Translations under genes and position numbers: made by a program | Notes under the pieces: model-generated | Database searches by the model: none | The model's input: the letters and a program-made list of their open reading frames with translations, nothing else | Told to the model about the DNA's origin: nothing | NCBI GenBank assembly: GCA_016207165.1 | Contig: JACQQD010000010.1 | Span: 1 to 29,020, forward strand | Source: Candidatus Micrarchaeota archaeon | GTDB lineage: Archaea > Micrarchaeota > Micrarchaeia > Norongarragalinales > Norongarragalinaceae | Reading direction: 5' to 3' | DNA length: 29,020 nucleotides | In this document: positions 4,395 to 7,609 of the stretch, one piece after another | Layout of the letters: the number at the start of each line of letters is the position of its first letter | Numbering within the stretch: position 1 is the first letter of the stretch

Positions 4395-4401
4395 GCTCAA
4401 A

Positions 4402-4517
4402 ACGAGCCCGAGGGGATTCGGCACCGGGACCACAGGGGGCTCCGCCCCCTATAGTCCTACGCTTCCCCGAACCCCCCGACTTGCGGGCGAACTGAACTAC
4501 GAGCCCGAGGGGATTCG
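4402..4517 (-). mobile_element. Miniature insertion/att scar in the tRNA-Arg 3' end (19-bp direct repeat, 97-bp period, internal hairpin)
   Basis: acgagcccgaggggattcg at 4402-4420 and 4499-4517; 14-bp stem at 4427-4457 between them. Confidence 0.7.
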
Positions 4518-4606
4518 AACCCCCGGCCTACTCCTGTGCCCTCGCGGTCCGGAAACCCTTTCCGCATTAGGACGGAGCCGCTCTATCCAGGCTGAGCTAC
4601 GGGCCC
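4500..4606 (-). tRNA. tRNA-Arg(CCT) with 32-nt intron at 37/38 (4536-4567)
   Basis: GGGCCCG TA GCTC AGCCTGGATA GAGC G GCTCC GT CCT A [intron] A GGAGT AGGCC GGGGG TTCGAAT CCCCT CGGGCTC G. BHB motif: GTCC/GGGC helix with TAA and ACA bulges. Confidence 0.93.
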
Positions 4607-4630
4607 AATGCAAAAAACGTGTACACCGTA

Positions 4631-4640
4631 AATTATAATT
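4631..4640. promoter_or_regulatory. Palindromic, probably bidirectional TATA box (tRNA-Arg and ORFan A)
   Basis: Perfect palindrome AATTATAATT, about 25 nt from both the tRNA 5' end (4606, minus) and GTG 4664 (plus). Confidence 0.6.
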
Positions 4641-4663
4641 GGTGGTCAAAGGAAAAAAACAGC

Positions 4664-5164
4664 GTGGAACTGGAACGCCTGCAAGAAGCCGGATTGGTTT
4701 CCAAGGAAAAAATGAGGTCGTACCGAAAGCCCGATGTATACGACGGCAACCTCGTGGAGAAAGAAGAGCACCGCGTCTACGCGGTTCCATTGTCTGAAAT
4801 TCTGGGAGAAAACGTGCCGGGCCGCGCGTACGTGGCCGTGCGCGAACTTTGGTTTTCCGACCCGAAGCGGCCCCGAATCGTGCGCCACGTCTTGGGCGTC
4901 GTCCACCCTGGCGACCTGCCCGTCCTGGCCGCGCGAACTCTCTCCCGCAAAACGCAGGCCGTCTACGCGGAGGAGCGCTGGCAGGAACACATTGAAGGTC
5001 GGCTGGAAGAACTGGAAAAAGGGCCGTTTGAGAAACCGCTTCCATTTCACGCGTTCACAGAAGAAGGCCGGCAGAAAGCGGAGGAGGCGTTGCGATACGC
5101 CACCGGCAAGAAATACATTTATTGGACGCCTCCAAACCATCCCCCAACCAGGAAAGAAAGTTGA
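4664..5164 (+). CDS. Hypothetical protein (ORFan A)
   Basis: E/K-rich ORF; GTG 4664 lies behind AAGGA and about 25 nt after the TATA box (track start 4619 is upstream of the TATA box). Confidence 0.6.
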   Translation: MELERLQEAGLVSKEKMRSYRKPDVYDGNLVEKEEHRVYAVPLSEILGENVPGRAYVAVRELWFSDPKRPRIVRHVLGVVHPGDLPVLAARTLSRKTQAVYAEERWQEHIEGRLEELEKGPFEKPLPFHAFTEEGRQKAEEALRYATGKKYIYWTPPNHPPTRKES

Positions 5165-5171
5165 ACTTGAA

Positions 5172-5327
5172 ATGGTCATCGAGGCACTCAAGGAAAAGCA
5201 GTGGATTTACCACCGTTTCCAAAACATGATGACGGAGATTCAAGACCAAATCCACTTCGTTTCCGACCCCGAACTGCCCGGACACATGATCCCGGTGCTC
5301 GTGAGGAAAAAAACAGCGTGGAACTAA
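5172..5327 (+). CDS. Small hypothetical protein (ORFan B)
   Basis: MVIEALKEKQWIYHRFQNMM...TAWN; host-like codons; starts 7 nt after the ORFan A stop. Confidence 0.4.
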   Translation: MVIEALKEKQWIYHRFQNMMTEIQDQIHFVSDPELPGHMIPVLVRKKTAWN

Positions 5328-5530
5328 TCGGCTTGGACGCGAAACGAACCCGAAAAAGCGTGCCGGCCACGCAAATCATGGGCATCGTGCCCTTGGAAAC
5401 AATTCCAAGCGGTCATCGAATGGAAAATGGGGTGTGGAATCCTCAAAAAATGCAGCTGGCCGTACACAGAATTGCGGACACAGAATTTGGGGAACGCATC
5501 CGAATGAGAATTCTGGGCTCCCAGGCCTAA
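5318..5530 (+). CDS. Small hypothetical protein (ORFan C)
   Basis: GTG start behind GAGGA, inside a 22-bp repeat of the ORFan A start region; MELIGLDAKR...GSQA. Confidence 0.45.
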   Translation: MELIGLDAKRTRKSVPATQIMGIVPLETIPSGHRMENGVWNPQKMQLAVHRIADTEFGERIRMRILGSQA

Positions 5531-5607
5531 GCCCGATTTTTAAGGGCTTCCAATTCAGACAGCAAGTTCCACACCAGCGTTCGGGCATGCATGGGCAGGT
5601 TGACGTC
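5527..5607 (-). pseudogene. Displaced duplicate 3' end (26 codons plus stop) of the UPF0147 gene
   Basis: Encodes DVNLPMHARTLVWNLLSELEALKNRA*, identical to the peptide from 5660-5740 but with 16 synonymous codon differences. Confidence 0.9.
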
Positions 5608-5659
5608 GGTCGCCCCAGGGGGAAGCGTCCCCCTTGGCCCGCCCTGGGCCTCGACCCCC
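5608..5659. repeat. Structured GC-rich spacer between the two UPF0147 3' ends
   Basis: GGTCG/CGACC outer pair, AGGGGGA-AGCG-TCCCCCT (5617-5634) and GGCCC-GCCCT-GGGCC (5636-5650). Confidence 0.75.
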
Positions 5660-5914
5660 TCACGCCCTGTTTTTCAGGGCCTCAAGCTCGCTGAGCAAAT
5701 TCCAAACAAGAGTTCGAGCGTGCATGGGCAGGTTTACGTCGTTGGAGACTTCGTCCAAGGCGTACACGGCGGCCGAGATTTTCGTGGAAAAGTCGTCCGA
5801 GCTTTGGAGTCGGGCTTTGGCGTCCGCCATTTTGGTGCGGACGTTGCGCGGCACCGAGTTGTCGTCGATAAGCATGTCCAAAAGCGGATACATTTTCTCG
5901 AGTCGTTCACTCAT
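5660..5914 (-). CDS. UPF0147 family protein
   Basis: DxSVPRNVR and LDEVSNDVNLPMHARTLVWN signature; ATG 5914 preferred as start. Confidence 0.92.
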   Translation of the reverse strand: MSERLEKMYPLLDMLIDDNSVPRNVRTKMADAKARLQSSDDFSTKISAAVYALDEVSNDVNLPMHARTLVWNLLSELEALKNRA

Positions 5915-6085
5915 GCCAATCACGGAAAAGCGTTCACGCGTCGCGGGAAAGCCACAGCGCCAACGGGTTTACTACGTTTGGGAAGTGGCACGCTTATAAA
6001 CGTATTTTTCGGATTTTCCGCGAAAAGCGTTAAATAGCGTCTCCCGCTTTAATGCATTCCTGATTTTTCGGGTGGGGAAAAGCGC

Positions 6086-7609
6086 ATGGAAAGCCAGTCG
6101 GCAACGTCTCGGGAAAGCGAACTTTTGGCCGTGGCCGAGTCGCAACAAGTCCTCATCGAACCCGACGCGTTCCAGGAACTCGTCGCCTTGGAGAACGCCG
6201 AGGGGCTTCTGAACCAGGCCGCGTCAGTCATCAAAGGCCGCGGCCAGTACGTGGTATCCCACGTCTTGGTCGCCGACTTGGTGGCTTCGCTTCAAACCCA
6301 AAAAAAGGCGTTGCCCGTCACCGTCGAAGCCTCCACGCGCTTTGACGCCCCGGCCAAGAGGATGGAGGCCCGCATCCGCATTTTCAAGGACCGGGAAGTG
6401 ACGAACAAAAGCCGGTGTACGGGGACGCTGGATGACTTTGTGGCGCATTTCAACAACCGATTCACGCAAATGAAGGGCATTCTTCGGGGCCGGCGCACCG
6501 AGTACACGTTCGTGGAAACCATCCAGAAGGCCGCGGCGTTTACCGCGAAAGAGAAAATCCGCGTCGTCGGCATGGTCTACCAGAAAAAGACGACGAAAAA
6601 CGGGCACGTCCTCATCGAATTGGAGGATGACACGCATGCCATGCCTTGCCTGGTGTCCGCCAACAGTCCTCTTTTTGCCGAAGCCCAGGGACTCTTGGAG
6701 GACGAAGTCGTGGCGTTGGATGGGTTTTTGTCCAAGGAACTCTTCATCGTCGACCGCATCGTCTGGCCGGACGTGCCCATCCGCGAAAAAAAACGGGGGG
6801 ACAACGACGTGGCCATCGGTTTTCTCTCCGACCTGCACGTCGGCAGCAAGTATTTTTTGCAGAACGAGTTTTACAAGTTACTCGAGTTTCTCAACGGTAA
6901 AGGAACCACCGAAGAACAGGAAGTCGCCGGCAAAATCAAGTACTTGTTCATCGCCGGCGACTTGGTTGACGGCATCGGCGTGTACCCCACCCAGGAAAAC
7001 CAGTTGGTCACCAAAGACATTTACGAGCAGTACCGCCAGTTCGTGGCCCTCATCAAGCAGATCCCCGAGCACATCCACGTCATCATCGGACCCGGCAACC
7101 ACGACGCCGTGCGAACGGCGGAACCCCAGCCCCAATTGTTTGACGAGTTCGCCATGGACCTGCTTGACCAGTCCAACGTCCACCTCGTCGGCAACCCGGC
7201 GTGGTTTGAAGTGGAGGGGTTCAAGGTCCTCATGTACCACGGCACATCCCTGGATTCGCTCATCTCCAGTTTGAACGCCAAGGACGGCTACAACCACCCC
7301 GAGAAAATGGGCATCGAATTGCTCAAGCGCCGCCACCTCGCGCCGACGTACGGCGACAAGCCCTTGGTGCCGGAGCACCAGGACTACATGGTGGTCTCCG
7401 ACGCGCCGGACATTTTCCACTTCGGCCACGTGCACAAGAACGGCTACGCGGACTACCGCGGCACCTTCGTGATTAACGCCGGCACGTGGCAGGACACCAC
7501 CGATTTCCAGAAGCGCATCGGCCACCAGCCCACGCCCTGCCGCTTCCCCGTGTACTTCTTGAAGACGGGCAGCCTGCAGGTGCTGCACTTTGGAGGATTC
7601 GCGCCGTGA
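6086..7609 (+). CDS. polB: DNA polymerase D small (proofreading) subunit DP1
   Basis: OB fold plus calcineurin-like motifs SDLHVGS, GDLVDG, PGNHD, YHG, RRHLAP, GHVH, NAGTWQ. Confidence 0.97.
   Translation: MESQSATSRESELLAVAESQQVLIEPDAFQELVALENAEGLLNQAASVIKGRGQYVVSHVLVADLVASLQTQKKALPVTVEASTRFDAPAKRMEARIRIFKDREVTNKSRCTGTLDDFVAHFNNRFTQMKGILRGRRTEYTFVETIQKAAAFTAKEKIRVVGMVYQKKTTKNGHVLIELEDDTHAMPCLVSANSPLFAEAQGLLEDEVVALDGFLSKELFIVDRIVWPDVPIREKKRGDNDVAIGFLSDLHVGSKYFLQNEFYKLLEFLNGKGTTEEQEVAGKIKYLFIAGDLVDGIGVYPTQENQLVTKDIYEQYRQFVALIKQIPEHIHVIIGPGNHDAVRTAEPQPQLFDEFAMDLLDQSNVHLVGNPAWFEVEGFKVLMYHGTSLDSLISSLNAKDGYNHPEKMGIELLKRRHLAPTYGDKPLVPEHQDYMVVSDAPDIFHFGHVHKNGYADYRGTFVINAGTWQDTTDFQKRIGHQPTPCRFPVYFLKTGSLQVLHFGGFAP

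Follow-up and report, generated by a model that had tools for sequence, protein, structure and literature searches.

The window analysed here is a stretch of 29,020 nucleotides from a Candidatus Micrarchaeota genome (G000; 1.27 Mb in 12 contigs, 90% complete), in which the 3' end of a gene of the UPF0147 family is present twice and the two copies are separated by a short hairpin repeat that we name E. The gene lies on the minus strand at 5660..5914: the open frame runs through 5660-5923, with a GTG at 5923, and translation probably starts from the ATG at 5914, giving a product of 84 amino acids with orthologues in 41 of 41 related genomes. Its match to the Pfam profile PF03685 (82.3 bits, where the cut-off is 23.6; residues 6-82 of 87) places it in that family. 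The last 26 codons make up the in-gene copy, D1 (5663..5740, minus strand), and are followed by the stop TGA at 5660-5662; the orphan copy, D2, holds 26 codons and the stop TAG on the same strand (5527..5607), and a repeat search of the window finds here a single direct repeat of 78 nt, with 77% identity and a spacing of 133. D1 and the coding part of D2 (5530-5607) share the translation DVNLPMHARTLVWNLLSELEALKNRA, with differences at 19 of 78 coding bases and in 16 of 26 codons and not one amino-acid change, and their stops are unlike as well, TGA in D1 and TAG (5527-5529) in D2. Upstream of D2 the frame reads TLPPGAT, which is not UPF0147, and in the D2 frame there is no start codon that opens an open reading frame (ORF) of at least 25 amino acids; the TAG of D2 overlaps the TAA (5528-5530) of a plus-strand open frame at 5201-5530. 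Between D1 and D2 lie the 52 bp of E (5608-5659), and D2 abuts the 3' end of E with zero gap. The unit inserted at UPF0147 is 133 bp long (26 codons, stop and 52 bp), and the gene is left intact. An earlier note, made from the sequence alone, had described the tail present twice with an identical peptide, changed codons and stop, and 52 bp between, and had seen the orphan's stop overlap that of its convergent neighbour; translation, alignment and coordinates confirm both, and the element size of 133 bp that it gave agrees with the empty sites of relatives described below.

The earlier note had also named, as a possible undoing of its own claim, a chimeric assembly of two strains. Contigs are public for four runs of one groundwater study, which may include the sample behind this genome assembly, and one contig of run X4 (record 31, 1064 nt) equals positions 5101-6164 without a difference and covers D2, the spacer and D1, which contradicts a chimera; the contigs of the other three runs end inside the 52-bp spacer, where a repeat would be expected to break them. 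In a congener (G001) the gene is closely followed downstream by another, partial UPF0147 match, with the same layout and at the same codon. Since the X4 contig spans both copies and G001 has the same layout, the duplication is real and does not come from an assembly join.

The 52 bp belong to a dispersed repeat, E, that consists of a G-rich 5' box and a long imperfect hairpin. The UPF0147 copy (5608..5659, minus strand) is of the A-type: its 5' box is GGGGGTCGAGGC, its small hairpin pairs GGCCC with GGGCC, and its main hairpin, GGGGG-ACGCTT-CCCCC, has a foot that ends in GGGGCGACC. The general plan of this type is a 5' box GGGGGYGAGGC, a small hairpin and a long imperfect hairpin, and a foot, GGGGCGACC or GGGGCTTAC, closes the element; the B-type (GGGGGTTCGGGG...GTGGTCC) and the C-type (GGGGGTGGG...GGTGGTC) have the central hairpin in common with it. 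A genome-wide search of G000 for the central GGGGG-N-CCCCC hairpin brought up further copies of the 52 bp, and a covariance model (R1), to which the UPF0147 E scores 69.7 bits, was built on ten A-type copies. Contig C11 holds a copy identical to the UPF0147 E over 52 nt, and relatives lie on C8, C9, C6 and C12. In the ten A-type copies 91.5% of the cells of the hairpin are paired versus 79.1% in shuffled sequences, a flattering control in that the structure was drawn from these same sequences, and 6 of 13 hairpin pairs are changed on both sides. The hairpin of which the earlier note spoke therefore stands by covariation among family members, whereas the spacer folded by itself is no stabler than its shuffles (z = -0.85). 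E has one internal hairpin, without matching termini or terminal inverted repeats, and an Rfam scan returned no family for it and matched only the tRNA. Many A-type copies have TTGA or TAGGA just before E. In the window the TGA of this motif, the same TGA that precedes the GGGGG box in other copies, serves as the stop of UPF0147 at the end of D1; in G001 the gene has its own TAA, after which come GTTGA and the box. Near E copies and tRNAs of G000 (C3:~109342, C1:~164790-164850; C8:~6420-6450, C1:~179700) we also noticed a further small repeated module, ...CCAGTTTCACG.TC.TCCTGACCCTCCC beside a GC hairpin, a second one with the hairpin GCAAGTCC-N3-4-GGACTTGC, and among these same places a longer A-type E with an extra hairpin, GCGATGTTGCC...GGCAACATCGC.

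Most copies of E are flanked by a direct duplication, 15-100 nt long, of the end of the adjacent gene, and what is duplicated is the 3' end of a tRNA, the 3' or 5' end of a protein gene or, once, a tRNA-Glu 5' half. With E read forward, the layout is the intact gene with D1, a variable left part, E, D2 beginning 0-6 nt after E, and the native flank; in every case the intact gene stands on the 5' side of E and the orphan beside its 3' end. Among the A-type copies of G000, the 70 nt to the right of E find a second local match in 11 of 14, and by eye the duplication is clear in 3 of 4 B-type and 1 of 2 C-type copies of this genome. Of 30 loci compared across eight genomes, 18 reach a score of at least 13 for flank duplication, against 12 or less in a control that compared the same left flank with DNA 400 nt further on, and D2 begins 0-5 nt after E in 17 of these 18. 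Among the 12 loci that lack a duplication are copies that lie at contig ends or are nested, and three places where a convergent tRNA (tRNA-Met, tRNA-Leu or tRNA-Trp) meets the 3' end of E directly with its own 3' end. The right junction is constant, and the left side varies from 2 to more than 100 nt, with short shared junction bases (T, TGA, ATTTGA).

The duplicate runs from a point inside the gene to a functional boundary, that is to the last sense codon or stop, to the start codon give or take a few bases, or to the tRNA 3' end. Otherwise identical pairs obey this rule too; in several pairs the identity extends over 18-49 nt, and the stops differ in most pairs read by eye. Within the window the rule covers the UPF0147 3' end (duplicate of 78 nt with 19 differences) and the 3' end of an intron-containing tRNA at 4500-4606 (duplicate of 19 nt). 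Elsewhere in G000 it covers the 3' ends of tRNA-Ser, tRNA-Arg and tRNA-Pro (contig C8), the tRNA-Glu 5' half and the 5' end of a gene starting MAKENVKPTRMELLN (both on C11, the latter with 4 silent codon differences in 15 codons compared), the 5' end of a gene starting MIVVHYGEL (C6, duplicate of 29 nt), the 3' end of a gene ending NRYRELKNALDLKVSI (C5) and four more protein 3' ends (C3, C6, C8 and C9). By its motif the C11 gene is probably that of V-ATPase subunit D, and the C5 gene is putatively TFIIB-like. At insertions into 5' ends (G000 C11:~80440-80625 and C6:~128360-128520; L057, L059, L064, L074 and L090) the orphan start opens a frame of 31-47 codons in 7 of 7 cases, which crosses the antisense E and stops within 11 nt before or after the first base of the real start (e.g. 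ATGA, TGAATG); these frames may reflect translational coupling, or just the first AT-rich stretch past a GC-rich element.

The near-absence of residue changes is seen across the duplicated coding ends. For 17 of 19 coding pairs, from four genomes, the adjoining long ORF gave the reading frame, and in these 71 differing codons are synonymous and 8 non-synonymous, one of the 8 (at L059) lying upstream of the real start. Random substitutions in the same numbers gave means of 14.5 synonymous and 63.2 non-synonymous codons, and none of 2000 simulations had 8 or fewer of the latter; the two pairs without an assigned frame are silent as read by eye. With a divergence so nearly silent, the orphans have not been dead DNA for much of the divergence time, and either the copies diverged as working ends in separate lineages and then met recently, or the orphans have been held under selection.

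Codon usage bears on which of the two copies is foreign. By a codon score derived from 503 long ORFs of G000, with an expectation for the tail of -26.3 (sd 2.8), the orphan D2 scores -27.2, at the 35th percentile and typical of the host, and the in-gene D1 scores -33.4, at the 1st percentile, with GTA, GCT, ACT and AGG (relative frequency 0.06-0.08 each) among its codons. The score agrees with the contrast between host-like orphan codons and atypical in-gene codons drawn by the earlier note, and it supports the in-gene copy as the probable foreign one at UPF0147; the V-ATPase-D-like site, with 4 codons only, has the opposite contrast. Sequence distance does not single out the foreign copy, since the five to seven UPF0147 ends compared are saturated, with all pairwise distances at 13-19 of 57 bases. 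With G000 as outgroup, six insertions of other genomes gave counts of 8 vs 11 vs 7, which are uninformative, and the G001 orphan differs from the empty-site alleles at 15 and 17 bases against 22 and 18 for the G001 in-gene copy, a weak difference.

Comparison with relatives shows the same site both filled and empty. The insertion is present in G000 and G001 and absent from a second congener (G002) and from two metagenome contigs (L095, L096), where the UPF0147 stop is followed within 3-7 nt by a convergent tRNA; the repeat flanks of 78-81 nt are in single copy at the empty sites, and the insert is without a mobility gene. The proteins of L095/L096 resemble those of G001 and G002, and the UPF0147 gene bodies of G001 and G002 diverge by 16.7%, as against 27-30% from either to G000. 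The filled state is thus off the tree: either this codon received the unit twice, or the unit was gained once long ago and then precisely lost. An old single gain is hard to accept, because 24 of 78 bases, yet only three residues, distinguish the G000 orphan from that of G001, and orphans so nearly silent cannot have drifted long as dead DNA. The left junctions of the two genomes are unlike (GCG followed by TGAGGGGG in G000, GCC TAA G followed by TTGAGGGGG in G001) and the G001 duplicate begins 3 nt earlier than that of G000, so two separate events fit. Within the first 21 bases, D1 and D2 differ at 2 positions in G000 and 1 in G001, and between the genomes at 3-7; the remaining 57 bases have 13-19 differences in every comparison. 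Judged by this pattern, the near-identical first 21 bases behave as the core of an attachment (att) site would. For three insertions (L059, L071, L070) of G002 and of G009, which belongs to a different genus of the family, the corresponding site in G000 is uninterrupted. The earlier note had looked to alignment with relatives for empty sites and for larger, integrase-bearing elements at the same codon; the empty sites exist, and an integrase-bearing or larger element occupies the codon at 0 of 56 UPF0147 loci, only G001 sharing the small unit.

In G000 we count at least 20 copies of E of all types, nearly all equally small. When R1 was searched against 61 genomes of the same family or order (E-value threshold, E<=0.01), A-type copies numbered 14 in G000, 23 in G001, 10 in G002 and 20 in G009, with 1-3 each in seven other genomes and 0 in the 50 others. 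The exact A-type pattern, sought in one genome each of 185,579 species, occurs at 13 places, all of them in groundwater Candidatus Micrarchaeota metagenome-assembled genomes (three isolates), and it has 0 matches in viral contigs; a metagenome scan for UPF0147 yielded 27 loci and E at none. E is found almost nowhere beyond a few groundwater Micrarchaeota and is a lineage-specific family, of which the UPF0147 case is one instance, a result more general than the single locus of the earlier note. We have before us, as observations, the repeat family, the duplications at its flanks and their geometry, the silent pattern and the presence or absence of insertions between species.

A second micro-insertion in the style of the UPF0147 one occupies 4402-4606 of the window. 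Its intron-containing tRNA gene (4500..4606, minus strand; Rfam tRNA, 45.5 bits) has 39 nt in place of the 7-nt anticodon loop and was missed by ARAGORN, whose intron mode, run on G000, gave 35 tRNA genes, 21 with an intron; several of these calls are unreliable, their introns being implausibly long, and at least one real tRNA was missed. Next to it stands a B-type E (4427..4498, core 4427-4477, minus strand; left part agttcagttcgcccgcaagtc), with relatives on C9, C8 and C6, which lies between the tRNA and an orphan copy of the tRNA 3' terminal 19 nt (4402..4420, minus strand; a 19-nt direct repeat with 100% identity and spacing 97, family D5). From this tRNA to the UPF0147 orphan, some 0.9 kb (4613-5526) hold open frames in three phases (4619-5164, 4734-5327 and 5201-5530) and a perfect 22-nt direct repeat at 4650-4671 and 5304-5325 (spacing 654); there is no Pfam match in 4613-5526, and the product of 4619-5164 has no homologue in 30 related genomes. 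The segment could represent a further insertion into a small gene, or else a lineage-specific gene that has been broken. When 4400-5530 of the window is set beside L003, L004 and L095, it is seen that in G001, G002 and two metagenome contigs the tRNA is convergent and directly after the UPF0147 stop, and a gene with a metallo-beta-lactamase fold comes next; in the window the tRNA has the opposite orientation and the 0.9-kb segment stands between it and UPF0147, which means that the locus has been rearranged.

Enzymes that might move E were sought in G000; its recombinases, three of the tyrosine type and one of the serine type, are encoded on apparent integrated elements. Profiles for Y1 transposase (PF01797), TnpB (PF07282) and reverse transcriptase (PF00078) have no match in this 90% complete genome, and a tblastn search with a TnpB-like product of G002 was also negative. 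That product, of 377 amino acids, is encoded directly upstream of UPF0147 in G002 (L004:175-1308) and is presumably TnpB-like, going by its motifs. In G001 and G009, where some E copies lie in pairs a few kb apart, the DNA so enclosed was searched for an autonomous element and holds ordinary genes, such as those for phosphoenolpyruvate-utilising enzymes and a helix-turn-helix (HTH) protein, and we identified no mobilising enzyme tied to E. At tRNA-Met there is an 11.7-kb island (G000 C1:153001-164696; L135) bounded by a 15-nt direct repeat of the tRNA 3' end, and encoding a tyrosine integrase together with HTH regulators, a serine recombinase whose C-terminus bears an HTH, and ORFs that match nothing in Pfam; integration of this sort therefore operates in G000. 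An inverted A-type E abuts the right repeat of the island from outside.

We propose, with a probability of roughly 0.45, that E cassettes are integrase-less miniature integrative elements, each carrying a replacement gene end. The 133-bp cassette in UPF0147 would consist of a replacement for the last 26 codons, an element-supplied stop and the E hairpin module. In a free or donor form the fixed 3' end of E would be joined to a copy of the gene end, and that copy would recombine with the resident gene in the first bases beside the 3' end of E, the chemistry being done by a recombinase supplied in trans; the cassette would land inside the gene, which would then end in the cassette copy (D1), and the resident end would be displaced downstream as the orphan (D2). 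The cassette as the moving unit, the crossover beside the 3' end of E and the enzyme are all things that we infer. Since a cassette would bring a complete gene end, be it a tRNA 3' end, a protein 3' end with its stop or a protein 5' end with its start, the host gene would stay intact, and if both copies were once working gene ends the near-silent differences would be explained. A model of this kind, for which the odds fall somewhat short of even, could account for intact genes, exact boundary ends and silent divergence, and, held with the same reserve, it could also cover the stretch beside E that co-varies with the host, the reuse of the UPF0147 codon and the contrast in codon usage.

A number of observations weigh against the cassette model. 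Nearly every copy of E is at a different gene, so a cassette with its own end must have arisen many times, which the model does not account for; nor was a free, circular, plasmid-borne or virus-borne form seen, viral contigs giving 0 matches. An identical E sits at UPF0147 and at the V-ATPase-D-like gene, yet with different ends and diverged duplicates, so that E and the gene end do not look like a single unit evolving together. In many pairs the copies are identical next to E and the differences are gathered toward the gene end, a pile-up not expected from one simple crossover between diverged copies, and element copies are not told apart from host copies by their distances. The family to which the integrases on contigs C3 and C5 belong occurs in 27 of the 61 genomes, patchily across the order and in many without E, so that it has no specific association with the repeat. 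Finally, the contigs of the four runs contain no joint that skips the 133 bp and no variant letters, a weak point in that contigs drop rare variants.

In the main rival reading, E alone is mobile and inserts with a long, variable target duplication. The machinery would join the fixed 3' end of E at one nick and its variably truncated 5' side at another, 15-100 nt off and on the opposite strand, and fill-in would duplicate the target; the copies would be identical at birth, only insertions whose duplication reaches a gene end would survive, and homologous recombination would later put alleles of related lineages in the place of one copy. That nearly all sites are different and species-specific comes easily where the duplication is made at insertion, and the same holds for pairs identical over 18-49 nt, for duplicates of anything from 15 to 100 nt and for a constant right junction opposite a variable left side with short shared bases; long, variable duplications without mobility genes, whose repeats can overlap gene 3' ends, are described in bacteria (PMC2853133). 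We nevertheless find this route less likely than the cassette. The copies end exactly at stops, starts and tRNA ends even in the youngest-looking pairs, and no enzyme senses all three; orphans diverged by up to 24% with almost no residue change would need recombination with very diverged DNA inside 80 nt, where the longest identical run is 14 nt; G000 and G001 use the same codon while closer relatives are empty; and none of reverse transcriptase, Y1 transposase and TnpB was found in the 90% complete G000. We give very little credence to the history implied by the earlier note, in which a large integrase-bearing prophage or plasmid in UPF0147 was deleted down to 133 bp. Its anatomy would be that of e14 at icd (PMC13626634), and the 11.7-kb element at tRNA-Met shows a large integrant in the same genome, but independent deletions would not converge on one small size and one module in at least 20 copies in G000 and dozens in relatives, no larger element stands at any of the 56 UPF0147 loci, and E pairs a few kb apart enclose ordinary genes; the 52-bp spacer is, instead of the leftover of something larger, a repeated element.

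It is also very improbable, in our judgement, that E is the scaffold of a small RNA that homes with the help of a nuclease or recombinase, the guide being the ~20 nt of gene sequence beside its 3' end. Such homing would explain why the bases beside E are almost identical between the copies in G000 and in G001 and co-vary between the genomes while the rest is saturated, and a gene that is presumably TnpB-like by its motifs adjoins UPF0147 in G002; yet TnpB was not found in G000, Rfam has no match for E, several pairs (L062, L046, L074) have no identical stretch beside E, the in-gene copy would itself be a target, and the RNA data on record for this stretch are none. Least credible of all is an artefact of two strains joined, or a plain tandem slippage duplication that drifted apart. 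The assembly is indeed metagenomic and the contigs of three of the four runs break in the spacer, but the X4 contig runs through 5101-6164 without a difference, G001 shares the architecture, dozens of loci in four genomes show the same style, and drift following a duplication would not leave 71 synonymous against 8 non-synonymous codon differences.

Whichever route made it, what is described here stands on firm ground: E is a lineage-specific family of tiny elements by which gene ends are duplicated or replaced. E with its flanking recoded gene ends looks like a new kind of miniature mobile element. Taken jointly, and as a reading we would advance only tentatively and think unlikely to hold in full, the evidence could point to an undescribed class of mobile DNA in DPANN archaea, a 50-nt hairpin with a portable gene end that enters essential genes (tRNAs, TFIIB-like, V-ATPase-D-like, UPF0147) harmlessly and shuttles diverged alleles between species, its hairpin known by shape like attC, its target programmed by the gene-end copy, and the whole re-targetable with no protein gene of its own. 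If this is true, it would be a new lifestyle for selfish DNA in very small, gene-dense genomes, with elements of 50-200 bp at no cost to the host, and a hidden path for the exchange of gene-end alleles between species. Orphan tRNA and gene fragments in such genomes would then be footprints of E elements and not assembly noise; E elements break short-read assemblies, and their 5'-end insertions place a short upstream reading frame before a gene. Should the attached gene-end copy set the targeting, E would be of interest as a programmable integration module.

Among known systems, repetitive extragenic palindromic (REP) sequences and REPINs with their REP-associated tyrosine transposases (RAYTs), palindromes derived from IS200/IS605, and MITEs (miniature inverted-repeat transposable elements) are short, non-coding, GC-rich, multi-copy hairpins at gene boundaries served by an enzyme in trans, and their target duplication is none, or short and fixed. 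By its size and number of copies E resembles repeats of the REP or MITE type, and by its anatomy it comes nearest to e14 at icd and to insertions with long target duplications; defining features of each are lacking in E. E differs from REP/REPIN and IS200/IS605 in having duplications and in that Y1 and TnpB were not found in G000, and from MITEs in having no terminal inverted repeats and duplications that vary over 15-100 nt. An integron attC site is a folded imperfect hairpin with conserved structure and variable sequence, recombined at a platform site by a dedicated tyrosine recombinase; the E hairpin likewise has covariation, but a platform or array was not seen and the tyrosine recombinases of G000 are unlinked to E. 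A target-primed retroelement would have a similar anatomy, with a fixed 3' junction, a variable 5' side and a variable duplication, but reverse transcriptase was not found in G000. The cis-mobilizable elements (CIMEs) of streptococci are integrase-less units, bounded by att repeats at a gene 3' end, that are moved in trans; they are kb-sized decay products of conjugative elements with one target, whereas E elements are 50-nt hairpin modules at dozens of targets. For the terms searched, the open-access literature has nothing on hairpin repeats with duplicated gene ends at their flanks, whether in Micrarchaeota or in other archaea.

Archaeal integrative elements, such as those of the pNOB8 and SSV types and the Caldiarchaeum tRNA-Thr element, are reported to enter tRNA genes and leave a partial tRNA copy (PMC3293823). 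With at least 1.8 kb and an encoded recombinase they are unlike E, and the tRNA-Met island of G000 is of their kind. Long target duplications are known from bacterial restriction-modification units without mobility genes, flanked by direct repeats that measure tens to hundreds of bp, correspond to one copy in the empty-site genome and in some cases overlap a gene 3' end (PMC2853133). The UPF0147 repeats resemble these in exceeding about 30 bp, in being single-copy at empty sites and in enclosing no mobility gene; the bacterial inserts, as described there, are kb-sized, unique gene cassettes without a shared hairpin, a boundary rule or reported silent divergence, and their repeats are identical or nearly so, whereas the UPF0147 pair is 77% identical with silent differences and some other E sites are near-identical. 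The comparison with e14 (and phage 21) at icd in Escherichia coli, already drawn in the earlier note, is apt in anatomy. There the gene runs into an element-borne 3' end and a pseudogene fragment beyond the element is what remains of the original end; the two icd end copies recombine on excision, and their differences show as synonymous changes (PMC13626634). Where e14 has 15 kb, its own recombination genes (an integrase or excisionase in elements of this type) and one target, the E unit has 70-200 bp, many copies and many targets, 5' ends included, and in its 133-bp form at UPF0147, with nothing larger at the 56 loci, it has no room for a gene. What the two would share is the principle: in UPF0147 as in icd, the insert would supply the gene end and leave the resident end behind as a direct-repeat fragment.

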